From Ostreococcus lucimarinus (Eukaryota): a stretch of DNA of 64,000 nucleotides. Positions within the stretch are counted from its first letter, which is position 1. Each line of letters opens with the position of its first letter. The notes under the pieces were generated by a model. The model worked only from the letters and a program-made list of their open reading frames with translations. It was not told the DNA's origin and searched no databases. Shown here piece after piece: positions 699-56,087 of this stretch. Location of the stretch: the NCBI GenBank assembly GCA_000092065.1, contig CP000601.1; one strand, 5' to 3'. The position numbers and the translations under genes were made by a program.

Positions 699-810
699 TG
701 GGATGGATGTCTCGCGTCGCGTCTCGGAGTTCGGGACGAGGGGTTCGCGGCGTCGTGAAAAAGTGACAAAAAAATCAGGGAAGCCGAGCTCCCCCCATGG
801 GGGTGAATCT

Positions 811-1036
811 CACAGCGATAAATTTTTTAAAGTACTATCCGTCACCCCGAAACGACGAAAGTCACAGTGTTGTCGTGTCGCTTTTCCATCACGGACAATC
901 GGGTGTGGGAAAAAGTAAGGTGTGATGTCGACACATCTCTTCCTGCGGGTTTCGATCCCGCGGCTTCCAGATCTCTATCGGAGCAGCCGTCATATTCGAC
1001 GGAGACTTTTTCCTAACAGTCTGACACTCTACCAGC
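811..1036. repeat. 226-bp dispersed repeat, copy 1 (direct repeat partner of 6746..6971)
   Basis: Aligned by eye to 6746..6971 with 3 mismatches in 226 bp. Contains the palindrome-like core TGTCGACACATCTC (926..939) and a tRNA T-arm-like hairpin GCGGGTTTCGATCCCGC. Confidence 0.9.
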
Positions 1037-1666: not shown

Positions 1667-3100
1667 TTAGTGCGCGTGTGCGTGTGAGTCTCCGCCACCG
1701 CCACCGCCTGTGCAATGCTTGTGGTTGAGGAGCACGAGACTGATGGCAACAACGCCGACGATGAAGGTGAGAATGCTCGTCGCGCGAAGACGAGGTGAAG
1801 TGGCGCTCACTGATACTCGGGGCATGCACTCTGCGGCGGCGATTTGCAGATAGACTCCAGCACCGAAGGCGAGCAGCAGTCCATGCCAGAAGTCGTTGTT
1901 ATTTCCCGATCCAACACTAATGAGGACGCCAAGAATGACACTCAAGCCGGAAACGAAGTTTAAAGTCAGCGTCGGCAACGGCGCGAGATCGCCCTGGAAG
2001 GGGTCTACGAGCACCAAGTAGTCAGCAAGCTCTTGAGCGATTTCGTGATAGACGGTCGCGGCGGTGATCGACCATCCCATGGTACTGTCGCAGTTCAGAA
2101 AGCCGAAGCCAATGAAAATACCATCCACTAGGTTGTGCATGAAATCTCCAAGAATGATACCACTTCGAACGCGATACTTGTGTGAGTTACAAGTACAAGT
2201 ATCACAGTCATCTTGAGCGCCTTTGACTGCAAGTTCCGCATCGGTTGTCTTCGCTGTATTTCCAAGAGTTGGGAACACGACAGAGATACCAAAGTCGATG
2301 AAGTAGGCCATGAGAAAGCCGAAGATAGAAGCGGAAGCCCACCATGCGGTCTGCTCTGCCTCATCCGAGCCAGCAGGTTTGATTAAATGCGTGGCTTCGT
2401 AGAACATCAGATAAAACGCAGCCGAAAGAAGTGCGCCGGCGGCAAACGAGTTAATTGTGCAACTCACAGTTTCAGGGTACGCTTTCTGCTTCTTAGCGAT
2501 ACTCGGGATGAGAAAGACCACACCAGAAAGTGTGACGATATTGACGATAATTGCCGCCCCAATGGCGTTGGCCCACGGTTTTGATTTCGATTCGCTCACG
2601 GTGGATGCTTCGGGAAGTGAAGCTTTTGGCACCACGTCATCTCCGTGGAGGTCCTTGAGATAGTGCGCGTCGCGCTCGAACTCGGTGGGAACGTGCTCAG
2701 CGAAGATTGAGATCGCGTCGATGCCAGTCGTATTAATCTTAAACGGCGTCGTGTGCCAGGTGTTGTCAAATTCAAGGTTGACACACCCACTATCAGGTGT
2801 CAAAACACTATCTCGTATCTTAGCCGTCGTACAAGCTCCCCCGATTGCGGTATCACCGCTATCCTCGCGGGCTTCGAGCTCGTCGTGTCCGGCGGCGATT
2901 TCGTCGTAGATGACCATTTTCATGGTATCGGCGGCGTACTTATCGGCCACCTTTTGCGCCTGCCACACGTATTCATTCTCTGGCGTCTCAAAGATTCCAG
3001 CCCATTCGAATGCGTGCGCGCCGGACGCGTGCGCGCCGCGCTGCGCGAGCGCGCTCGCGACGATCGCGATGCCACCACCGAGCGCGCTCGCGCAGCGCAT
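1667..3100 (-). CDS. ZIP-family (SLC39/ZRT-IRT-like) zinc/metal transporter
   Basis: ZIP signature in a TM helix (VYHEIAQELADYLVL, matching HExPHExGD), HNLVDG motif, multiple TM helices, N-terminal signal peptide (MRCASALGGGIAIVASALA). ORF 1667..3196 on the minus strand, with the likely start at the internal Met at 3100. Confidence 0.8.
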   Translation of the reverse strand: MRCASALGGGIAIVASALAQRGAHASGAHAFEWAGIFETPENEYVWQAQKVADKYAADTMKMVIYDEIAAGHDELEAREDSGDTAIGGACTTAKIRDSVLTPDSGCVNLEFDNTWHTTPFKINTTGIDAISIFAEHVPTEFERDAHYLKDLHGDDVVPKASLPEASTVSESKSKPWANAIGAAIIVNIVTLSGVVFLIPSIAKKQKAYPETVSCTINSFAAGALLSAAFYLMFYEATHLIKPAGSDEAEQTAWWASASIFGFLMAYFIDFGISVVFPTLGNTAKTTDAELAVKGAQDDCDTCTCNSHKYRVRSGIILGDFMHNLVDGIFIGFGFLNCDSTMGWSITAATVYHEIAQELADYLVLVDPFQGDLAPLPTLTLNFVSGLSVILGVLISVGSGNNNDFWHGLLLAFGAGVYLQIAAAECMPRVSVSATSPRLRATSILTFIVGVVAISLVLLNHKHCTGGGGGGDSHAHAH

Positions 3101-3196
3101 CGTTCGCCCTCGTCGTCGCTCGACCGTCCTCGCACCGCGTGCGCGTTCGCGCGGCGGCATCGTCGTCTTCGTGTTCTTCGTGTTTTCGTTCGTCAT

Positions 3197-3658
3197 CGTT
3201 TCCGTCGTCGTCGTCGTCTTCGCCGGCGTCGGTAAGTGCGGCTGCGCACAAACTAAAGCGGCATACGAACCGAACCGGCGCGATGGAGGGCGGTCGTTTA
3301 TAAGTCACGACTCGCGAACGACAAAATGTCGACATCCGCCGCAGTGTCGACACATCTCGGTGGTACTTGGATATGTCGAAATATGTCGACATGTGCGTCG
3401 AGACGTTTTTCGTATATAGATGCATCACGGGGTTCAATGCGTACACGCGCGTGGGTAAATATGTCGACATGCGTGTCGACATGTTTACGACGCGCGTCGC
3501 GACGCGATCCGTGATGGGCTTCGCGGGGCGTCGCGTACGACGATCCTCGACACGTGCACGACGCGAATCGTCGACACGTGCACGACGCGCGCGCATCGCC
3601 GCACTTCGCGACGCCTCTTCGGCTCGTTCGCGCGCGGAGACGTCGATCGCCGTACATC
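3197..3658. promoter_or_regulatory. Bidirectional promoter between ZIP(-) and COG0523(+) with a repeated palindromic element and two tandem G-box (CACGTG) 21-mers
   Basis: Copies of ATGTCGACAT (or its TGTCGACA core) at 3326-3335, 3344-3355, 3383-3392, 3461-3470 and 3474-3483, plus a half-site at 3371-3380. Tandem repeats TCGACACGTGCACGACGCG at 3547-3565 and 3568-3586. Confidence 0.6.
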
Positions 3659-5299
3659 ATGTCCACACCCGCCGCAATCGCCAATCATAATCGATTGCCG
3701 GTGACAACGCTGTGCGGGTTCCTCGGCGCTGGGAAGACGACAACTCTGAAACGCGTGCTCGAAGCTAAGCGAGACGCGAACGGAAAGTTTCGGTGTGCCG
3801 TCGTCGTGAACGACGTCGCGGAGTTGAACATCGACAAAAAATTAATCGATGATTCCGCTTTGCTGCAGAGCGACGAGGTGGTTGCCATGCAGAACGGATG
3901 CGTGTGCTGTTCGTTGAGCGGAGACTTTGTAAAACAAATCGGGGACATGGCCAAGAGTGGCAATTTTGACTACATGATCGTAGAGGCATCAGGAGTGTCG
4001 GAACCGGCGGAAATTGCGAAACTCTTCGCAAATTGTGAGGACGATCACGATCATGAAGCTGCGCACGTTGATGAGCATGAACATTTGAGCACACTGGCGC
4101 GGCTGGATACGTGCGTGACGGTCATCGCTGCAGGTGACTTTCTCGACATGATTGATTCTTTCAGGGCGTCAGCTGTGAACAGGCAGTCTTACTCTCAATT
4201 GTTGGCTGAACAGATAGAGTACGCGAATGTCGTCGTATTGAACAAGGTCGACACTGTCGATGACGAACAACTCGCCGAGATTAAAGCGCAGATACAACTT
4301 CTCAATTCACGTGCTGATATTCTTGAAGCTGTGAACGGCGCGATCGACGTTACGCGAATCGTCAATACAAAACTTTACAAAGAGAATGACTTTGCTGGTT
4401 TCATAACATGGGAACAAGAGATAGAAGCAACATCTGTGAAGTCATGCTGCGCCGGCGCTAGGGACAAAGGTGAGTCTCCATGCTGTAAGCGAGCTCGCAT
4501 GAGAGAAACAGCCTTAAGCGAGGTCACGCTTGCACCAAGTTCTTCCCAAACACGTCACGATAGTCGGTTCGGTATTACGTCTTTCATTTACCGAGCCAGA
4601 AGACCTTTTCATCCCAAACGGTTTTTAGGCTCATTTGTCGAGCGCTTCTTCAGCTCCCTCGAGGCCGATGACCGTGATGAAGAAAAAGATGAAGAGACAC
4701 CAAGTGTAGACTGGAGTGCAGTGAAAGATATTCGAGCGCGACAAGAAGCGATGAAACTCAAGCGCCGTAAAAGGGAAGGTGAAATTGGTGTGCTGCTACG
4801 TTCGAAGGGTGTAACGTGGCTCAGTGATGCCCACGACTTGATAATTGTTTTCAGTCAGGCTGGTAATATTTACTCTCTCGAAGGATCAAGCCGATGGACC
4901 GCGCTGAATAAAAATGCTTGGGTCGGCTCACAGGGGATAAAGCAAGAACTTCGTAAAGACTGGGAGGGGCCTTATGGTGATCGCCGACAAGAACTGGTGT
5001 TCATTGGCAAGGATCTTAAATACGATGAAATTCAATCAACGTTGGACTCTTGCCTCTTGACCGACGAAGAATTCGAAATGGGTTCTGATGGCTGGAGAGC
5101 AGTCATGGGTGATGTCTTTCTAGACGAAGACGACGAAGACGAAGACGACGAAGTCGATGACGAAGACGACGAAGAAATCGACGAAGATTTGGTCGACGAC
5201 GAGGAGATCGAAGAGGAGATCAGGCCGCAACCCACTTCAAAGTCGAAGGCAAAACCAAAGGCAAAGTCGGCGCCCTCTCAAAACGACGGCTTAGTCTGA
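3659..5299 (+). CDS. COG0523/CobW-family GTPase, ZNG1-like zinc metallochaperone
   Basis: P-loop GFLGAGKTT, the CxCC metal-binding motif (GCVCCS) and a His-rich stretch (EDDHDHEAAHVDEHEH) typical of Zn-linked COG0523; CobW_C-like C-terminus and a poly-acidic tail. The ORF opens at 3554, but the likely ATG is at 3659 (MSTPAAIANHNRLPVTT...). Confidence 0.85.
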   Translation: MSTPAAIANHNRLPVTTLCGFLGAGKTTTLKRVLEAKRDANGKFRCAVVVNDVAELNIDKKLIDDSALLQSDEVVAMQNGCVCCSLSGDFVKQIGDMAKSGNFDYMIVEASGVSEPAEIAKLFANCEDDHDHEAAHVDEHEHLSTLARLDTCVTVIAAGDFLDMIDSFRASAVNRQSYSQLLAEQIEYANVVVLNKVDTVDDEQLAEIKAQIQLLNSRADILEAVNGAIDVTRIVNTKLYKENDFAGFITWEQEIEATSVKSCCAGARDKGESPCCKRARMRETALSEVTLAPSSSQTRHDSRFGITSFIYRARRPFHPKRFLGSFVERFFSSLEADDRDEEKDEETPSVDWSAVKDIRARQEAMKLKRRKREGEIGVLLRSKGVTWLSDAHDLIIVFSQAGNIYSLEGSSRWTALNKNAWVGSQGIKQELRKDWEGPYGDRRQELVFIGKDLKYDEIQSTLDSCLLTDEEFEMGSDGWRAVMGDVFLDEDDEDEDDEVDDEDDEEIDEDLVDDEEIEEEIRPQPTSKSKAKPKAKSAPSQNDGLV

Positions 5300-5399: not shown

Positions 5400-5696
5400 G
5401 TGAGCGCAAGTCATTTTTATGCACACAGTGACATCTTCATCGAATACCAGACGTGGTTGCCAGCGGCTGCGCGCGGTCAAGATAGCGCGACGAAGGTCGG
5501 CAATAAGCTCAAGGACTTCTTCAAGAAGGAAAAGGGCCACAGGGTCCCAATGGAAGAGGACCACCTGAGGCAAGGTAGAGACGAGAAGGGCGTCTATTGG
5601 GAAATTCACCGCGACGGGTGCTTCGAGTGGCTGAAGGACAATGGGTACACAGGGGAGACGGAGCTCGCGCCGGCGGTCGTCTGGTGCTCATACTAA
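5400..5696 (+). CDS. Hypothetical small protein (98 aa) in the lower-GC island
   Basis: Intact ORF with lower GC than its flanks. No recognisable domain. Confidence 0.3.
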   Translation: MSASHFYAHSDIFIEYQTWLPAAARGQDSATKVGNKLKDFFKKEKGHRVPMEEDHLRQGRDEKGVYWEIHRDGCFEWLKDNGYTGETELAPAVVWCSY

Positions 5697-5761
5697 TTTT
5701 GTAATTCGTACATTTGCAATATGAAGACTCAACGAGACACCAAAAAGACCATGGTTTGGAT

Positions 5762-5951
5762 CCTGACGAAATGACGAATGACGAACTGTTTTCATAAAGG
5801 TCCACACTGTTGCTTGTCATAGATCTAAAATAAAAATAAACATTAAAATATTTTAACATTTCGTCATTTTCATCATTGGTACACACAAAGTGTCACCGAA
5901 CGACGGGTTGACGAATTTGTGGACGACAAAACAAGTTCGTCATTTCGTCAG
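5762..5951. repeat. AT-rich segment flanked by 17-bp inverted repeats (CTGACGAAATGACGAAC at 5762-5785, GTTCGTCATTTCGTCAG at 5935-5951)
   Basis: The reverse complement of 5935-5951 equals 5762-5778. The roughly 150 bp between them is strongly AT-rich, in contrast to the roughly 68% GC of the surrounding sequence. Confidence 0.7.
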
Positions 5952-6130
5952 GTCTCGACGGATCACGAACGTCCAGGTGTGAAATCAGGCGGTTCGGTAT
6001 CTACATTCCGGACCTTGCAGCCCACGCAGCGATACGCGTACCTATGGTCTCTCGGATGTGACTGCAAACCGCAGGAGGAGGCACTTTTGGCAACAATATT
6101 TTCTTAGGGATAGATAGGTAACCAGGACAA

Positions 6131-6628
6131 ATGCCGTCGGGATGCGTGTACGAAATGTTTAGCGATAATGCGAAATGTAACAAAACGTACATCGGATCGA
6201 CGACGGGTTCGCTCAGAGCGCGCCTTGCCTCGCATAAATACGCACGACATCCAATCTTCACGTTTGGCGACGCGGACGTGAGAGTTCTCGAAAAGGACAT
6301 TCCAGCTGGAGAGCTCCATCAACGTAAAGGTGCCTACATGAGAGAGAAGCGTGACGGCTTATTCAACTCCCGAGCTGCTGGACGCAGCCAGAAACACGCG
6401 TGCCGCGAGAACGTGGACGAGAGTCCAGCCTACAGCAGAGCTCAATATACGCCGAAGCGGGACGGCGGCGATGGTAACTACAGACAACTCAATTATTACA
6501 AGCAGCACGCAAAAGGAATACTGCGCAAGACGTGCCTCAAGAATGCCCGAGCGCGCGGCACGCTGCCTTCGAAGCGCAGTCTCGACAAGTATCAATTTAC
6601 GGTAGATGAGTTACGCGGCTTGGCTTGA
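6131..6628 (+). CDS. GIY-YIG-like nuclease-domain protein (small, 165 aa)
   Basis: N-terminal GCVYEMF (GIY-like) followed by YIGSTTGSLRARLASH (YIG, conserved Arg, His) and a downstream Glu. GC is about 52%, well below the window average. Sits immediately upstream of repeat copy 2. Confidence 0.55.
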   Translation: MPSGCVYEMFSDNAKCNKTYIGSTTGSLRARLASHKYARHPIFTFGDADVRVLEKDIPAGELHQRKGAYMREKRDGLFNSRAAGRSQKHACRENVDESPAYSRAQYTPKRDGGDGNYRQLNYYKQHAKGILRKTCLKNARARGTLPSKRSLDKYQFTVDELRGLA

Positions 6629-6745
6629 CCACTTCACTCACACGATTGGTTCTGGAGAAATCTTACATGCGGTACATCAACGTCGATGTGCGGTTTTATC
6701 ATGTTGGGGTGCCCCAACTCAAAAAAAAAGTTTATTTTTATTACT

Positions 6746-6971
6746 CATAGCGATAAATTTTTTAAAGTACTATCCGTCACCCCGAAACGACGAAAGTCAC
6801 AGTGTTGTCGTGTCGCTTTTCCATCACGGACAATCGGGTATGGGAAAAAGTAAGGTTTGATGTCGACACATCTCTTCCTGCGGGTTTCGATCCCGCGGCT
6901 TCCAGATCTCTATCGGAGCAGCCGTCATATTCGACGGAGACTTTTTCCTAACAGTCTGACACTCTACCAGC
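6746..6971. repeat. 226-bp dispersed repeat, copy 2
   Basis: 98.7% identical to 811..1036 in the same orientation. Preceded by an A9 run (6721-6729). Confidence 0.9.
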
Positions 6972-7232
6972 TGAGTTAAGGAAGACTGTTTATGCATACG
7001 CACAACATCGCGGACATTCGACTGCCCATGCTCTTTATTTCGAGGCTTAACTCGGCGAGGTGGACGAATAATTGGTATTATACGTCGCTCGATGGTGGGT
7101 TTGCGACAGATCTTCGCGGCTTGACGCCGTCGATCCGCGATCGCGAATGTTACAGGTTGAGGGCTCGGGCGAGGACGTCGGTGGTTTTCGCGCGTTCGTT
7201 CGTTCGTCGTCACTCCGCGGTCGAATCCATCG

Positions 7233-49324: not shown

Positions 49325-52300
49325 GTGCGAGCGCGTCTCGCGCGGGCGTCGCGCGCGCACCGCATTTCGCGACGGCGGTCGATGCGGGCCCCGTCGCGCG
49401 CGCCGTGCGCGTCCGCGCGCCCGGAGGCCGGCGTCGTCGACGCCCTCGATGATCTCGCCGCCGTCGACGCCCGCGCGTGCGGCATCGGCAAGCTCACGAT
49501 CGCGCACGACGACGACGACGACGACGCGCGAGGTCTCCGCCATCGCGACCGCGGCGCGTTCGCCCTCGATTTGCGCGCGTGGTCGTTCACCGCGCGCACG
49601 CAGCCGGTCCGCGCGCTCGGGGCGTGCGCGCGAGACGCGTCCGTCGACATGCGCGTGCCGTTCAGGGACGAATACGAGCGACACAGGGCGTCGCGACCGG
49701 ACGAACGCGCGCCGCGAGGGGCGAGTTGGCGCATCCATCGAGTGCGAGGATGGCGCTTCGACCTGCGCGCGCTGTACGAGGAGGTGAAAAGACGCGGTGG
49801 CGCGGACGCGATCGATGGAAATCAAGGCTGGCGCGAGGTCGCGGAGGCGATCGGGGCGCACGGACGCGGATGCGCGGCGGGACACGCGGCGAGAGCGCTG
49901 CACGGGGCGTGGCTGGAGGCGTTCGCGCGCGACGCCAAGCGAAGAGAAGACGCGGTGAAGAGCGCGCAGTTCGACGCGGTGAAGGGAGAGATCGAACAAG
50001 ATGACGCGCTGGCGATCGATGCGCTGTGTGGGCTCGAATTTGGGGCGTCGGGCGCGCCCGAACGGCGAGTCAAGGTGGAAAATGTGCGTAATTCGTGCCA
50101 TATCTTCTTCGCGCGGGACCGGGATGACGGCGAATCGCACGCGTTCGCGGCGCGTGCGACGCGCGCGCGCGATGATGGGCGTCGCGATGACGTGCGACTG
50201 ACTTTTACGGCGCGTGTTTTCGCGACGCAGGGCCTCGATCTCGTCGCCTCGCAGCTCGCGGACGCGCCCGAGGGCGACGCCGACTGCGACGTGTGCGGCG
50301 CGAGCGGGAACGAAGACGCGATGATCCTGTGCGATGGGTGCGATCGAGGGTGCGTATACGACAATGCCACGCGAGAACGCGCGCGTGAAAATTATCTCGA
50401 TCGTTCGGACGCGCGTTCGGGGAGAGAGAGCGCTCGCGCGGCGCGCGAGGGCGCGGCGAACGCGCGCGTGGGCGACGGTTAGACGTGGGGTTTAGAGGCG
50501 CGCGGGGGAGAAGGAGCCGCGAAGGAGCGACGAGACTGACGAATGATGCGCGCGTAGGTCACATATGTACTGCTTAACGCCGAAGATGACTGAAGTGCCG
50601 AGTGGAGAGTGGTTTTGTGGACGATGCGAAGAGATTGACGCGGAGGTGGAGCGATTGAGCGCGGATGAAGGGACGCAGTTTACGCTCGGCGATTTCAACG
50701 AGGCGTGCATAGAATTTGATACGGCGTTCTTTGGCGAGGACGCCAAGCGAACTGGGATCGATATGCAGGTGATTGAGGAGTGTTTCTGGCGAATGGTTGA
50801 AGATGCGAGCTCGGTGGATGATGTTTGCGAGGTCAAATGCGGCACGGCGATTGACACGACAAAGTACGGAAGCGGGTTCCCGAGACACGGCGAAGCGCTT
50901 CAGGTAAAGATTGACGGCGTGAGCCCGGAATCTATCAAGCGCTGGTCAGAGTCGAAATGGAATCTCAACAACGTCGCGCGCGCGAGTGGGGAAAAGTCGT
51001 CGCTACTGGGCGCGTTGAAGGATGACGTGGCGGGCGTGACGACGCCATTCTTAGAAGTCGGAAGCACGTTTAGTTCCACGACTTGGCGTCGAGAAGAGCA
51101 TAACATGTACAGTATCACTTACAATCACTGGGGTGCCGCGAAACTGTGGTACTGCGTGCCGGCGAGTGCAGCGGACAAGTTGGAAGAATGCTTCCAGAAG
51201 GTGATGCCCGACGTCTACGAGGCGCACGTCAACGATTTGGGAAGCGTCTTTACGATGCTCTCGCCGAGCTTCTTGATGAGCGCGGGAGTGCCCGTGCACA
51301 CGTTGGAGCAATTCCCAGGAGAATACGTGGTGACGTATCCCGGGGCGTACTACGCGTCGTTCAACTGTGGATTGAACTGCACGGAGAGCGTCAACTTTGT
51401 GCCCGCTGACTGGCTCCCAGAGGGCTCGGCGAGCGTGGAGAGAAACCGATCGTACGCCAAGCGTTCATTGTTTAGTCACGACGAGTTGGTTTGCAGAGTA
51501 GCAAACAATCCTAGTTCGAGCATAGCGCCGCACTTGTGGCCCGAGATTGCGCGCTTGTACGCTGAAGAGGCAAACGGTCGCGCCGAGCTTTTCGCGTCTG
51601 GCGTGACGCGCAGCGCGCAAATGACGTCAGCAGACGACGACGACGACGACGATGGCTGCGAAAAGCCTCGTAAAGTACGATCTAGGTTTGACGATGCATC
51701 GAACTCTGGATCCGATGAGTGCGTTGTTTGTCGACACATTTTGTACTCGTCTGGCGTCGGGTGCTCGTGCGACGAGACGCGCAAGGCGTGCTTGCGACAC
51801 GTCAACGACTTGTGCAAATGTGCGATGTCGAAGAAGACGATGTTTTACAGAGAAACAGTGGCTGATTTAGAAAGTCTGGTGAAGAAGACGGAGAAGGCGC
51901 TTTCTCAGAAGGAACTAGCCAGCTTAAAATCCAAGCACAGCGACTTGGACTCAGTCACAGTGAACAAGAATCTCGTCAAGAAGGCTCAGGCTTGGGTGAA
52001 ACGAGTGGGCGAAGAGCTCGTCAAACCACCTTTGCCGCCGCTGGACAAGATGAGAAATTTACTCGCTGCGGGTGAAGAGTTTATTTGGGGTGGTGCTGAT
52101 ATGAAGGCGGCTCGAGAAGCGTACACTCGCGTGACGAACGCCGTCGCGTGGCAGACGAGTCTTGTGGCGCTGAAGCAAAGGCTTGGATCCAGTGCTGGTG
52201 CCGAGGCCGCGCACGATGACGCTGGTGAAGCGCGATTGAGATTGAACAGACTAAAAGAGCTCCTTGACAACCCACCGGTACCGATGCCTAAGGCTGATAC

Positions 52301-55300
52301 TCAACCTTTCCGCGATTTGCTCGCGGCGGGCTTGAAATTGGAGGAACGCATCAAGGCGGCTCTCGCCGAGGTACCGAATCCATCTCCTCGCGCTTGTACG
52401 ACGCTTCAAACTGAAGCGAATAAGTTTGGTGTGGAAGTCCCTTCATATAAAAAGCTGAAGGACGTCATCGTTAGAGCAGGCGCGTGGTCCACGAAGGTGC
52501 GCGGCGCGCTTCCAGGACGACGACAACTCCCGCCGCGCGAGGAACTAGCGAATGCTCGAGAGATCGAGGCGTTATACGAAGAGGCGCATGGATTACCCGT
52601 TCAGCAGAGCGAACTCTTGACTTTGCGCAAATCTTTAGAAGAGTTGAATTTTTGGCGCGCAAAGTCTGAGTCGCTGTTCGTCGCCAAGGTTGACGTGGAA
52701 GAAGCCGAGGCGCTTCTCAAGGAGGGCATGGCGTTGTCAACAAAACTCGACGAGGTCGACAGACTAGCCGATCAAATCAAAGCTGTCAAAGTGTGGGCCG
52801 ATCATGCTCGAGCGAGTGATTATCCGGGAGCAAGAGTGACGGATTTGCACATGCTTCTCGTCGAGGGTGAAAAGTTTAGCGTGCGAGTGGACGAAGTCGA
52901 GTGGTTGCGAAACCGTATCGTCGTCCGGGAGCTGGCAGAGAAATTGAAGGACATGGTTTCATCGAAGAAATATCCGCTCGCCGAAGTCGAAGCGGCCGTG
53001 CGGGCGGGTAACGAGTTCCTCGACTCCGAAGATAAAGAGGTTGCCCCAGATGAAGAAGCGCTGCTGGCGCAGTGCGAGAGCCACATCAACGCGGCGAAGA
53101 AGTGGAACGAGCGCGCGGCGGTGATGCTCAAATCTCTCGATAGTAAGGACCGACCGTCACTCGAAGACGCCGCGTCGCTCATCCGCGAAGGAAGCTCGAT
53201 TCCAATCTTTCTGAATGGATTCGACGTGCTTTCAGAAGCGGTCAATGTAGCCAAGTCTTGGTTGGATCGTGCACAACCTTGTTTGAAGGGAAAGCAGCTC
53301 ACTCGTCGCGGTGTGTCAAATCCGATTCCGCCGCTTTCCGAGGCGCAAGAGCTCATGAAAGAGTCTTCGAACTTGAAATTGTTTGTCAAGGAAGTTGAAG
53401 CTTTGGAAGAACGCGTCGAAGCCGCAGAAGAGTGGGACGTGGACGCGAAGGACGCCATCGAGCGCTGGCGAGAAGACGGCGCCGAGGTGACGTTGACCGA
53501 GCTTGAACTTTCGCACGAAGACTTTGGATTAGAATTACCAGCCATGGAGACAGTTCGCATTCGTTTAAAGTCGCTCAAGTGGGAAGAACGCGTCGCTAAG
53601 ATCATTGCACCCAAGGCGAAGCTCGTCGAGGACACCGTTTTGGACGAGCTCAGGGAAGAAATCGACGTGCTTCAAGACTTGAAAGAGGATCTTGTCGCTG
53701 AAATCATGAAACGGTACACGATTGTGGACGAATGGCGCAAGAAAGCGGATCGTTTGCTCGATCCTCCTCTCCTTGAAGACGGTCGATTGGCTCCGAGTGC
53801 ATCACCGGAGGAAATAGACGCCCTCATCGCCGAAGGCAAGGCACTTCCCGCTGACGTCTCGAAGGTAGAAGACCTCGAGGCGTCGTTGGCGGATCACGCA
53901 CAGTGGGTCGACACCGTTCGTAAGTGCTTGAACAGTGTCGCTGAAGGTCGATCTCGCCCTTCGATTGACGAATTATACGATCTTCTAGCGGAGGTGGAAG
54001 ATTTGACCTTCAAGTGCTCAGAGAGACAAGCGCTCACAAATGCGTGCAACGCCGCCACGGCGTGGACGGAGAGGCTCAACGCGTTGCTCTGGGCAAACGA
54101 TCAGGGTGAAGTCAAACAAGAAAAAACGCTTATCGAAATGTTGAGCAATGTTCTTGATTCCATCAAAGCTGGTGTGGAAGACATCACCGGGACTGGCGAA
54201 CCGCCGGAGACGGAGGAGGGTTAGTTCTGCCTTTGTCGACAAGCTGGAGGAATTCAAATGGTTGGATGTGATGATTGCGGTGACTGGTATCACTTAAAAT
54301 GTATCAATGTGACGCCTACTATGGCAAAGACGATGCACAATTACATCTGTCCGCCATGCATCGCGAAGAGTGGCAAGGCGAGCGCACTCTCGTTGGATAC
54401 GTATCGCTCGGTGCATCGCACCAATCGCCCAAACGTCATGCTTTTGCGAGAACTCCTCGGTGAAGCGCAGCGATTTCCTGGAGAAGTGCCAGAAGAAGCC
54501 GTGTTGAATCAAGTCATCAATACTCACGACGCGTGGCGATTGGAAGTACGAAAGACTTTGCATAGAAAGAGTATGAAGGAAGCACACGACAACGCCATCA
54601 GTCAAGCTTCGAAGATTGCCCAAGAAGCAGCGATGAGAGAATCTGAGGAACGCACACGACGAATCGCCGAAGCGTCGCTCGCGGCGACTGCAGAGAACCC
54701 CAATCCTCCAGCTTCTCTCACGCCATTACAGCAAGTCATGCTGATGGGTCAAGCTGTCACGTTCGCCGCAACGCAGCGCACGCACGCGTTGAACATTTCG
54801 CCGTGTTCGCAGGAGATTTCAGATGTCGTCACAAAGCAGCTCGGGCAACTTCAACAGCTCGCCATGCAACTCGCGATGTGCCAAGCTCAAATTCACATGG
54901 CTCCAGTTCGGTCTAGGCCCCACATCCTCCACGTCTTGATGATGCAGCAACAGCATCTAAAGATGACAAACGAGCACGAGGAAGAGCTGGCAAATGTTGG
55001 CGCTAGCAACTGGCTCATGGAAGCGACTCTGCAACTATCTGGAATGTCTGGCATGATGCCGCCGCCGACGGCGCAAGACACCGGCAAAGAACCTTCAACA
55101 TCCACGGGTCATGGTAGTCCAAGCGATATGTCTGCTCAGTTGAAGACGAACGAACCGATGATGGTTCCGCAGCAGTTCATGTTGCAACCGGCCATGCCAT
55201 CGCTTGTCGGCGACGCGTCTGGAATGCCCAAGCAAGAGATGGATTACACGTATGACATTCCTCGAAAAGATAATGTCGATCCAGCGCTGCAAGTGTACGC

Positions 55301-56087
55301 GGGCATGAAGGGTGCTCTGGCGATGGAGCTGGAACCTGTTGAGGAGACGCTCGCGTTGATGCGCGAAGTGTGCGGTCCGGCGTGGAGAGAACAAGCCACG
55401 CGGCTCATGACTGGTGCGCCGTTCCCGAGGTTGATCAAGCTTCACGAGCTCAAGGAATCTGCCATGGCTGCTGGTCTTTGCCCTGGTGCCGGCATTGATC
55501 CTTTGGCCGATCGCGCGCACGCGTTGGAGGTTGCTGGACAAATCTGGCTCGAACGCGCCGCCGCCGTCGTGCAAGACAAAACGATTCCTATCGAGGCGGC
55601 GCAGTTGCTGCTTCAAGAGGGTCGATCTTTGCCTTTATACTTGAAGGAGGAGCTCGAGGAGTTGGGAGAGCGATGCGAACTGTATTGCGTTTGCCGAAGC
55701 GCGTACGACGCTCTCAGGCCGATGATTTGCTGCGATCGATGCGATGGTTGGTTTCATTACGAGTGCATCGGCATGCAGTCGCCGGCGCCGGGCGAGGAAG
55801 ACGAAAACGCCGAAAACGTCAAGTTTGCCTGCCCAGAGTGCTGCGCGGCGCAAGGTATTCCGTACGTTCCGTTCCGTCCAGCGCCGAAGGACACGGACAA
55901 AGCGCCGGAGCGAGCCGCGCCTCCGCCGGCTGAAGAAGCTCCGGAGCCGCCAAAGACGGAAGAAGAAGCGAAGCCGCCCGCTAAACCAGAACCGGAAGTC
56001 GCGGACAACAAGAAGAAACGAAAAACGGTGGAGCCGACTCCGCCTGCTAATAAAAGTACCTCTAGTCGCAGCAGAAGACGAAAGTAG
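49325..56087 (+). CDS. KDM5: KDM5/JARID1-type JmjC histone demethylase (ARID-PHD1-JmjC-C5HC2 ZnF-PLU1-PHD2-PHD3), interrupted by one clear intron (50350..50556) and an in-frame TAG at 54222..54224
   Basis: ARID block FDLRALYEEVKRRGGADAIDGNQGWREVAEAIG. PHD1 is split by the intron (CDVCGASGNEDAMILCDGCDRG | SHMYCLTPKMTEVPSGEWFCGRCEE). JmjC core HNMYSITYNHWGAAKLWYCVP...FNCGLNCTESVNF, then a C5HC2 zinc finger. Downstream PHD fingers FCLCRQAGGIQMVGCDDCGDWYHLKC...CPPC and CVCRSAYDALRPMICCDRCDGWFHYEC...CPEC. Confidence 0.8.
50350..50556 (+). other. KDM5: Spliceosomal intron of the KDM5 gene (207 nt, GTGCGT...GTAG), splitting PHD1
   Basis: Splicing gives CDGCDRG-SHMYCL, a canonical C-x4-H-x2-C PHD spacing, in frame. 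Confidence 0.8.

Follow-up and report, generated by a model that had tools for sequence, protein, structure and literature searches.

A 64-kb stretch of Ostreococcus lucimarinus DNA (contig CP000601.1), here called the window, carries a gene for a ZIP-family metal importer and a gene for a COG0523 GTPase that point away from each other across a spacer holding five exact copies of land plants' zinc deficiency response element (ZDRE). The initial annotation of this DNA had described a divergent pair with starts about 460 bp apart; the distance is 462 bp from the longest ZIP open reading frame (ORF) and 558 bp from the annotated ZIP start. Coordinates without a contig name are those of the window, while other contigs are given L numbers and some of the proteins discussed P numbers.

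1667..3100, minus strand: coding sequence of the ZIP-family metal importer, 477 aa (Pfam Zip; identity to a CCE9901 protein)
3101..3658: divergent intergenic region, the putative control region common to ZIP and COG0523 (from the gene coordinates)
3659..5299, plus strand: coding sequence of the COG0523 (G3E) GTPase, 546 aa, long ZigA-like subfamily (Pfam cobW and CobW_C; best NCBIfam match ZigA)
3716-3742, plus strand: Walker A, GFLGAGKTT (GTPase translation; invariant in the homologue alignment)
3896-3910, plus strand: GCVCC, aa 80-84 (GTPase translation; invariant in the homologue alignment)
4034-4084, plus strand: His-rich CEDDHDH...HEH, aa 126-142, CEDDHDHEAAHVDEHEH (GTPase translation)
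4445-4486, plus strand: CC-x10-CC insertion, invariant (GTPase homologue alignment)

The minus-strand gene is a ZIP (SLC39) importer, as had been proposed. Its longest ORF (1667-3196, minus strand, 509 aa, with an in-frame upstream ATG at 3196) matched the Pfam Zip profile (PF02535) at E 1.2e-21 and 77.7 bits, above the cut-off of 35.1, and the core motifs HNLVDG and HEIAQELAD, which mark the metal site of transmembrane segments (TM) 4 and 5, could be read from the translation. A signal-peptide-like N-terminus and an N-terminal domain of ~190 aa precede the ZIP core; BbZIP structures gave a weak match that spans only TM4-7. The 477-aa form, which starts at 3100, has the same sequence as the O. 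lucimarinus CCE9901 protein 'ZIP family transporter: zinc ion', and because that protein is filed under two accession pairs (XP_001420991.1 and XP_001422904.1), the CCE9901 genome has two copies of the gene. Orthologues at 79-91% identity lie on other Ostreococcus-like contigs.

We observed a perfect 20-bp GC-rich inverted repeat in the ZIP mRNA (3038-3057/3079-3098, 21-nt loop; -60 kcal/mol, z = -3.0), placed in the signal-peptide coding region immediately 3' of the annotated AUG. It is kept in the O. lucimarinus-like contigs L015, L016 and L092 and is not found in L012-L014 or L017. This repeat may be a translational brake or a duplication scar.

The plus-strand gene encodes a COG0523/CobW (G3E) GTPase, as had also been proposed. 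Pfam cobW (5e-41, 140.6 bits) and CobW_C (1e-18, 67.1 bits) both matched, the former domain bearing the Walker A and CxCC motifs, and the GCVCC and His-rich stretches that the initial annotation had picked out are both present, at aa 80-84 and 126-142. The profile searches that it had suggested as a check (Zip, cobW, CobW_C) were run and confirmed all the families. When the window protein was aligned with Cymbomonas, stramenopile and bacterial homologues, the residues invariant in this long COG0523 subfamily were GCxCC, C126/H130/H132/H136 and the CC-x10-CC insertion at C263/264 and C275/276; the tail of the window protein is acidic. An AlphaFold2 model of the long COG0523 protein was poor (mean pLDDT 59, with the CC-x10-CC insertion and the His-rich loop both <50), and we therefore draw no conclusion on a metal site from these two elements.

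Might the GTPase belong instead to the cobalamin CobW clade, the placement that had been named as counting against a zinc role? The top NCBIfam model was ZigA (NF038288, a zinc metallochaperone), at 288 bits in two stretches, whereas CobW proper (TIGR02475) scored 97.5 bits against its cut-off of 332; cobalamin-pathway genes were absent from the window. The equivalog cut-off of ZigA (600 bits) was not reached. The GTPase therefore does not fall in the CobW clade, and judged by its sequence it is ZigA-like and not a ZigA orthologue. Its match in PDB was YjiA.

Homologues of the GTPase fall straight from 97-100% identity, the level of O. lucimarinus-like metagenome variants, to about 53%, where Cymbomonas, diatoms, other stramenopiles and bacteria appear. 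No long COG0523 orthologue between 53% and 97% identity was found among 5.8 billion proteins, though Mamiellales are abundant there. The GC content at third codon positions (GC3) is 0.525 in the COG0523 gene, the lowest among local genes, and 0.609 in ZIP, compared with 0.73-0.80 in the flanking genes. The identity gap and the lowest GC3 together fit a recent acquisition of the COG0523 gene or its loss in every sister lineage. A bacterial homologue with 49% identity adjoins Cation_efflux, MerC and ABC-3/ABC_tran genes. The exact window protein was recovered from 23 independent metagenome contigs, and on several of these the same ZIP gene accompanies it. Hence, the gene pair is real and not due to chance.

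ZDREs in the spacer and at orthologous loci

The sequence RTGTCGACAY is the Arabidopsis ZDRE consensus; bZIP19 and bZIP23 bind it, and most land-plant promoters of the ZIP4/9/IRT3 type contain it (PMC5476651, PMC9643250). The spacer between ZIP and COG0523 contains the following elements.

3297-3302, minus strand: TATAAA-like box in the minus-strand reading, adjoining the next element (joint feature 3297..3313)
3304-3313, minus strand: conserved palindrome-like block GAGTCRTGAC, between the ZDRE pair and ZIP (aligned in the window, L012, L013, L014 and L017)
3326..3335: ZDRE 1, ATGTCGACAT, ZIP-proximal (RTGTCGACAY match; kept in all ZIP orthologue promoters examined)
3344..3353: ZDRE 2, GTGTCGACAC, 18 bp from ZDRE 1 (RTGTCGACAY match; kept in all ZIP orthologue promoters examined)
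3373-3382: sixth site, a ZDRE with one mismatch, ATGTCGAAAT, abutting ZDRE 3 (haplotype A only)
3383-3392: ZDRE 3, ATGTCGACAT (RTGTCGACAY match; haplotype A only)
3461-3470: ZDRE 4, ATGTCGACAT, inverted repeat with ZDRE 5 (haplotype A only)
3473-3482: ZDRE 5, GTGTCGACAT, inverted repeat with ZDRE 4 (haplotype A only)
3543..3589: two tandem copies of the 23-mer ATC(C/G)TCGACACGTGCACGACGCG, each with a CACGTG core (repeat search; haplotype A only)

This 10-bp imperfect palindrome is strongly enriched. Eight exact RTGTCGACAY sites occur in the window against 0.54 expected, a count that none of 100 shuffles reached, and five of the eight (at 3326, 3344, 3383, 3461 and 3473) lie inside the 558-bp spacer, in the promoter of ZIP. 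The TGTCGACA palindrome was found ten times (1.4 expected), half of them in the spacer. The GAGTCRTGAC block and the TATAAA-like box would form the ZIP core promoter, and the tandem 23-mer lies ~70-115 bp upstream of the COG0523 ATG. A single shared control region had been supposed in the initial annotation; the spacer does resemble a zinc control region, with five exact plant-type ZDREs of which two are phylogenetically footprinted. Overall, the proposals of the initial annotation were borne out wherever sequence analysis could test them.

The footprint came from orthologous loci. Upstream of ZIP in every orthologue examined (L012, L013, L014, L015, L016, L017 and L018) stands an exact ZDRE pair, 18 bp apart, and the GAGTCRTGAC block comes next after it. 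Across the window, L014, L012 and L013, 18 of the 20 ZDRE columns are invariant versus 44 of 108 columns in the rest of the promoter. Nearly all RTGTCGACAY sites at the ZIP orthologue loci cluster at ZIP, bZIP or COG0523 genes.

Whether orthologous ZIP and COG0523 genes are adjacent in related genomes had been set as a further check, and the partner of ZIP was seen to vary. Adjacency held in the O. lucimarinus-like genomes (the window, L003, L004, L015, L016 and L092), where the partner of ZIP is the long COG0523 gene, and a short COG0523 gene (435 aa) is clustered with ZIP in L012, in the order short COG0523, bZIP, ZDRE pair, ZIP, with an extra ZDRE directly upstream of the short COG0523. It did not hold in L013, L014, L017 and L018, where the divergent partner of ZIP is a bZIP of 230-260 aa. 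The short L012 protein scored best against NF008578 (GTPase; 248 bits, below the cut-off of 361), which places it in another subfamily than that of the window protein. From these gene orders we conclude that ZIP has been linked to COG0523 twice, with different paralogues.

A metagenome scan for double ZDREs, in which 120 loci were sampled, returned ten loci that match the ZIP, bZIP or COG0523 queries. All ten are Ostreococcus ZIP loci, and seven have the order seen in L012. The scan gave no new targets: ten flanking ORFs of seven other loci were bacterial or unrelated, among them planctomycete cytochrome, MraZ, RF-1 and amidase genes. A single ZDRE lies 250 bp upstream of a Cymbomonas homologue of the long COG0523 gene.

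On three contigs, ZIP and bZIP have two neighbors a few kb away, one of the ferric-reductase family and the other a divergent SBP_bac_5 (NikA-like) gene (L014 12899-17554, L017 5817-10471 and L018 6009-10663). A third ZDRE on these contigs is placed 3' of the reductase gene, where none of the ORFs accounts for it. The left end of L014, a long-read contig, is probably chimeric, since the first gene there (523-1287) clusters at 90% identity with a protein from the SAR11 bacterium HIMB5.

The ZIP-linked bZIP and the proposed circuit

Could the bZIP encoded beside ZIP read the ZDRE? The basic region of the ZIP-linked Ostreococcus protein, which is not encoded in the window, is NR[AV]AVRRYRER[RK]R and bears the signature of F-group bZIPs. 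Its contact positions, N-x2-AV-x2-YR, are all identical to those of plant F-bZIPs, NREAVRKYREKKK, in a comparison of the bZIPs of L012-L014 and L017 with real plant sequences; retrieval of the latter was seeded with an Arabidopsis bZIP19 sequence, and the near-identical named plant proteins returned were used. At the C-terminus the algal bZIPs share an invariant FLExYFTHGDACPC, which in the distant member P0547 reads FLVHDDGCPCPGHHSHHG, with HDDGCPCPGHHSHHG in place of FTHGDACPC.

An exhaustive search with a profile of prasinophyte bZIPs only found 14 proteins at E <= 0.001 among 1.84 billion, and no plant F-bZIPs were among these 14. We rejected filing the ZIP-linked bZIP as an F-bZIP because the plant proteins were absent from the matches and scored only 18-32 bits. 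To judge from its residues, the protein probably acts like an F-bZIP and has the same DNA-reading head; we do not file it as a member of that family.

Outside the bZIP family of Ostreococcus-like and related marine contigs, to which all members so far belong, the top match to the profile was P0548, which is F-bZIP-like (44 bits), followed by the ATF4-like P0549 (38 bits). P0548 (762 aa; L019 7001-9289, on a contig of a compact, intron-poor marine eukaryote) has two bZIP domains of the form GNR[AE]AVRRYREKKKA. Its N-terminal Cys/His clusters (HTVTCGHLAHGHACHEV; CVHAHHTC...ECWHVHRI) resemble the zinc-sensor motif of plants, and two AAGTGTCGGCA sites, which are one-mismatch ZDREs, lie upstream of its gene. 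P0548 may be an F-bZIP from outside land plants.

A more distant member of the algal family, P0551 (33% identical), comes from another alga with a compact genome; on contigs of 150-190 kb its gene is arranged tail to tail with a different ZIP gene, one with a His-rich loop. The sole two RTGTCGACAY sites in 16.6 kb stand directly upstream of that ZIP gene, each in a repeated 20-mer.

We consider it probable, at about 60%, that the window holds a compact zinc-acquisition module, in which a ZIP importer and a ZigA-like COG0523 protein are expressed divergently and co-activated through the ZDREs by a zinc-sensing bZIP. When intracellular zinc is low, a dimeric bZIP activator would bind the ZDREs and both genes would be turned on. 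The importer would then take up metal, and the GTPase would pass zinc to client apo-enzymes. Once zinc suffices, its binding to a Cys/His motif of the bZIP would turn the activator off. In sister lineages a bZIP gene and the ZIP orthologue stand head to head; this bZIP is the candidate regulator, and FTHGDACPC is the candidate sensor motif. The sequences show the gene identities, the identity, enrichment and conservation of the ZDRE motif, and the recurrent linkage of ZIP, bZIP and COG0523; beyond these, the reading predicts zinc responsiveness, binding of the bZIP to the ZDRE, a sensing role for this motif and co-regulation of the two genes.

Several observations weigh against this reading. 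No bZIP gene was detected in the window by tblastn, and no member of the bZIP family carries a name from a reference Ostreococcus proteome. The algal bZIPs lack the N-terminal Cys/His zinc-sensor motif of the plant proteins, with an alignment gap opposite CTHTHTCNP...HTHTCFHVHT, and the plant F-bZIPs (library-wide E >= 0.007 for their 18-32 bits) scored slightly lower against the prasinophyte-only profile than did P0549. A common natural haplotype of the promoter, haplotype B, is without the three COG0523-proximal ZDREs (3-5). Two more ZDRE-type sites of the window lie in tRNA-derived repeats, and one lies elsewhere with no obvious link to zinc. Finally, ZIP transporters are promiscuous, and a His-rich ZIP of O. 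tauri, like the P0551-linked ZIP in this respect, is iron-regulated (PMC4855317).

Perhaps, then, the pair is a metal-homeostasis unit under ZDRE and bZIP control whose signal or substrate is iron, cobalt, manganese or general divalent-metal status? The O. tauri protein, Ot-Irt1, is induced by iron limitation and has a long His-rich loop as does the P0551-linked ZIP (PMC4855317), and the ZIP/bZIP loci of L014, L017 and L018 adjoin ferric-reductase-family and SBP_bac_5 genes. The metal specificity of COG0523 proteins cannot be read from sequence (PMC13368412), and diatom ZCRP-A responds to both zinc and cobalt (PMC9010474). However, the motif is identical to the zinc-specific ZDRE of plants, the GTPase is closest to ZigA, and two independent linkages to COG0523 point to zinc, the commonest COG0523 ligand. 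The SBP_bac_5 neighbour is itself in the same (NikA-like) family as the zinc- and cobalt-responsive diatom ZCRP-B. We regard control by another metal as unlikely and favor the zinc module.

Promoter haplotypes and tRNA-derived repeats

The locus varies between contigs and is bracketed by repeats.

809..1036: left copy of a 228-nt direct repeat, truncated tRNA-Asn 3' part and downstream flank (99% identity; ZDRE-type site at 925-934)
3375..3626: segment swapped for an unrelated, AT-richer sequence of ~325 bp in haplotype B (contig alignment; flanks ~100% identical)
5400..5696, plus strand: conserved 98-aa ORF, next after COG0523 in all window-type contigs (cluster of 169 members)
5758..6830: insertion polymorphism with a 165-aa GIY-YIG-like ORF at 6131-6628 (absent from L001, L002, L003 and L005)
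6744..6971: right copy of the 228-nt direct repeat, overlapping the intact tRNA-Asn (99% identity; ZDRE-type site at 6860-6869)
6872..6985, minus strand: tRNA-Asn(GTT) with a 41-nt intron (Rfam tRNA, 49 bits; ARAGORN with introns allowed)

Haplotype A is that of the window, L001 and L003, and haplotype B that of L002, L004, L006, L009 and L010. L015, from a lineage 95% identical overall, keeps haplotype A with five ZDREs. L016 is a mosaic, in which ZIP is 90% and COG0523 99.9% identical to the window. The two unrelated promoter haplotypes, together with this mosaic, suggest recombination or introgression inside the spacer.

Does the ZDRE pair control only ZIP, while COG0523 is a recently rearranged neighbor on its own promoter and part of no shared regulon? 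The pairing of a diverged ZIP with a near-identical COG0523 in L016 would suit such a history. So would the GC3 of COG0523, far under that of the neighboring genes, the gap in its orthologues set beside the 79-91% orthologues of ZIP, and the replacement in haplotype B of the COG0523-proximal 250 bp by sequence without ZDREs. Yet three additional exact ZDREs stand on the COG0523 side in haplotype A, which L015 retains, and in haplotype B the distance from the conserved pair to the COG0523 ATG is still ~350 bp, the genome being very compact. Moreover, the ZIP and COG0523 genes stay joined as a block in at least three flanking contexts, and another COG0523 gene clusters with ZIP in L012-type genomes. 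Control of ZIP alone is in our judgment improbable, about as much so as a response to another metal, and we retain joint control of both genes as the preferred reading.

The 228-nt repeat consists of the 3' 100 nt of the tRNA-Asn and 128 nt of flank, the left copy lacking the first 14 nt of the tRNA part. (Default ARAGORN missed this intron-containing tRNA gene, which Rfam and ARAGORN with introns allowed recovered.) Segment 1037-6743 is thus bracketed by a direct repeat of a tRNA 3' part, the arrangement of a tRNA-targeted island. Because the tRNA 3' part and its flank are duplicated 5.9 kb away, the ZIP-COG0523 segment looks like an insertion into, or a duplication at, a tRNA gene. The ORFs scanned with Pfam included no integrase or transposase, only the weak GIY-YIG match. 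The ZIP and COG0523 block (1667-5290) recurs at 95% identity in L015 with different flanks on both sides (APC11 side).

These repeats raise a further possibility, that the palindromes are structural sites, used in recombination or replication of a mobile cassette, and resemble the plant ZDRE by coincidence. Both repeat copies contain a ZDRE-type site, and the 14-mer TGTCGACACATCTC is common to them and the ZIP promoter; the cassette is low in GC, duplicated in the reference genome and known from several contexts, one of them permuted or tandem; and ZDRE repeats coincide with the haplotype breakpoint and with several contig ends. But the ZDRE pair keeps its spacing and its position relative to the ZIP start where ZIP lies outside the cassette and the surrounding promoter has diverged, and two sites also lie upstream of an unrelated type of ZIP in a distant lineage. 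The lack of an integrase or transposase in the scanned ORFs also speaks against it, as does the lack of IMG/VR relatives for either gene. We think a purely structural role very unlikely, and the sites are better read as regulatory elements of the zinc module.

A virus-borne cassette was likewise rejected on present evidence, the IMG/VR scan with the ZIP and COG0523 proteins having returned no relatives. On L006 (6988 nt) the order is LHC gene, COG0523 with a haplotype A promoter, 98-aa ORF, tRNA-derived repeat, ZIP (minus strand), haplotype B promoter and beginning of COG0523; the arrangement is permuted or tandem and has a 5757-to-896 junction. L006 could represent the second copy in the genome, a form that is tandem or circular, or a mis-assembly caused by the repeat.

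The 98-aa ORF had no Pfam match. The 165-aa ORF is identical to multi-copy predicted proteins of O. lucimarinus (cluster of 898 members), and the insertion that carries it looks like a mobile element. Window positions 5425-6749, which take in most of the 98-aa ORF and the GIY-YIG ORF, correspond at 95% identity to L014 18785-20109, in an unrelated context.

The TGTCGACA sites at 51729, 54234 and 57386 were taken as background, since the genes that contain or adjoin them (KDM5-like, PHD and SpoU-methylase) have no connection with zinc. The KDM5-like gene (50565-54224, plus strand) has JmjC, zf-C5HC2 and PLU-1 domains, and 33 nt further on an ORF at 54258-56087 (plus strand) has PHD fingers and a weak PLU-1 match. 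A single gene, interrupted by a short intron or a stop codon, probably accounts for both.

Relation to known zinc systems

The nearest known system is the Arabidopsis regulon of bZIP19/bZIP23, ZDRE and ZIP4/ZIP9/IRT3. The cis-element consensus is the same and stands in multiple copies upstream of ZIP genes; the candidate algal bZIP has the same contact pattern, N-x2-AV-x2-YR-E-(K/R)3, and offers a conserved Cys/His motif for metal sensing. The differences are several. The host is a chlorophyte (Mamiellophyceae), a group from which no F-bZIP has been reported: Castro et al. found none in O. lucimarinus or Chlamydomonas and placed the origin of the family in land plants (PMC5476651). The algal bZIP has FTHGDACPC at its C-terminus in place of the plant N-terminal CxHxHxC...HxHxCxHxH sensor, and its similarity to F-bZIPs outside the basic region is statistically not significant. 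Unlike the plant regulators, it is encoded next to its apparent target in sister lineages, and a COG0523 chaperone is among the apparent targets.

Bacterial Zur regulons (ZigA, and YciC/ZagA with znuABC and zupT) likewise link an importer with COG0523 under a common, putatively metal-responsive region, and the window GTPase, which is most like the ZigA model, has ~50% identity to bacterial homologues. Here, in contrast, the locus is nuclear and eukaryotic, the genes are divergent and monocistronic, and the palindrome is of the bZIP type and not a Zur box. The GTPase also departs from bacterial ZigA in its score, in its CC-x10-CC insertion and in its acidic tail.

Eukaryotic ZNG1 (CBWD/YNR029c), the METAP1 chaperone, is also a COG0523 protein with CxCC, presumed to deliver zinc under scarcity; the window GTPase is of another, longer subfamily. 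A client-binding motif stands at the N-terminus of ZNG1, and we noticed none in the window GTPase, though no comparison aimed at it was made.

Among algae, COG0523 and ZIP proteins rise under scarcity of zinc, or of zinc and cobalt, in Chlamydomonas (ZCP1/ZCP2 and ZRT) and in diatoms (ZCRP-A/ZCRP-B), and the genes of both families are induced by zinc deficiency there (PMC2770081, PMC9010474, PMC13368412). ZCRP-B is of the same family as the SBP_bac_5 protein encoded near the ZIP/bZIP locus of some Ostreococcus lineages. Linkage has not been reported in those systems, and the cis-element and regulator are not known; the zinc regulator of Chlamydomonas was stated to be unknown from 2009 (PMC2770081) through 2026 (PMC13368412). 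In Ostreococcus, linkage and candidates for both can be read from the sequence. For chlorophytes, no circuit of the ZDRE or F-bZIP type was reported in the literature searched. The gene families themselves are ordinary; the novelty lies in an array of exact plant ZDREs within the bidirectional promoter of a prasinophyte ZIP and COG0523 pair, along with a divergent, linked bZIP.

A wider proposal can be put forward tentatively, at somewhat less than even odds. The zinc circuit of land plants would be older than land plants and would work in prasinophytes through a bZIP with an F-bZIP head and a C-terminal H-x-D-x-C-x-C sensor, driving COG0523 as well; the O. lucimarinus pair and its ZDRE array would be a portable, low-GC cassette bracketed by repeats derived from tRNA-Asn, that moves or duplicates as one piece among sites and strains. 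Such a cassette is a possible example of a metal-acquisition unit relocating within picoeukaryote genomes.

For the zinc-deficiency response of green algae and marine phytoplankton, the locus offers a cheaply testable candidate element and regulator in a model genus that can be transformed, and it points to COG0523 chaperones as direct targets. A ZDRE pair beside a ZIP, bZIP or COG0523 gene may also serve as a signature by which zinc stress could be recognized in metagenomes and metatranscriptomes from the ocean. Contrary to the view that the F-bZIP/ZDRE system arose with land plants, the locus suggests a zinc circuit far older than they are.

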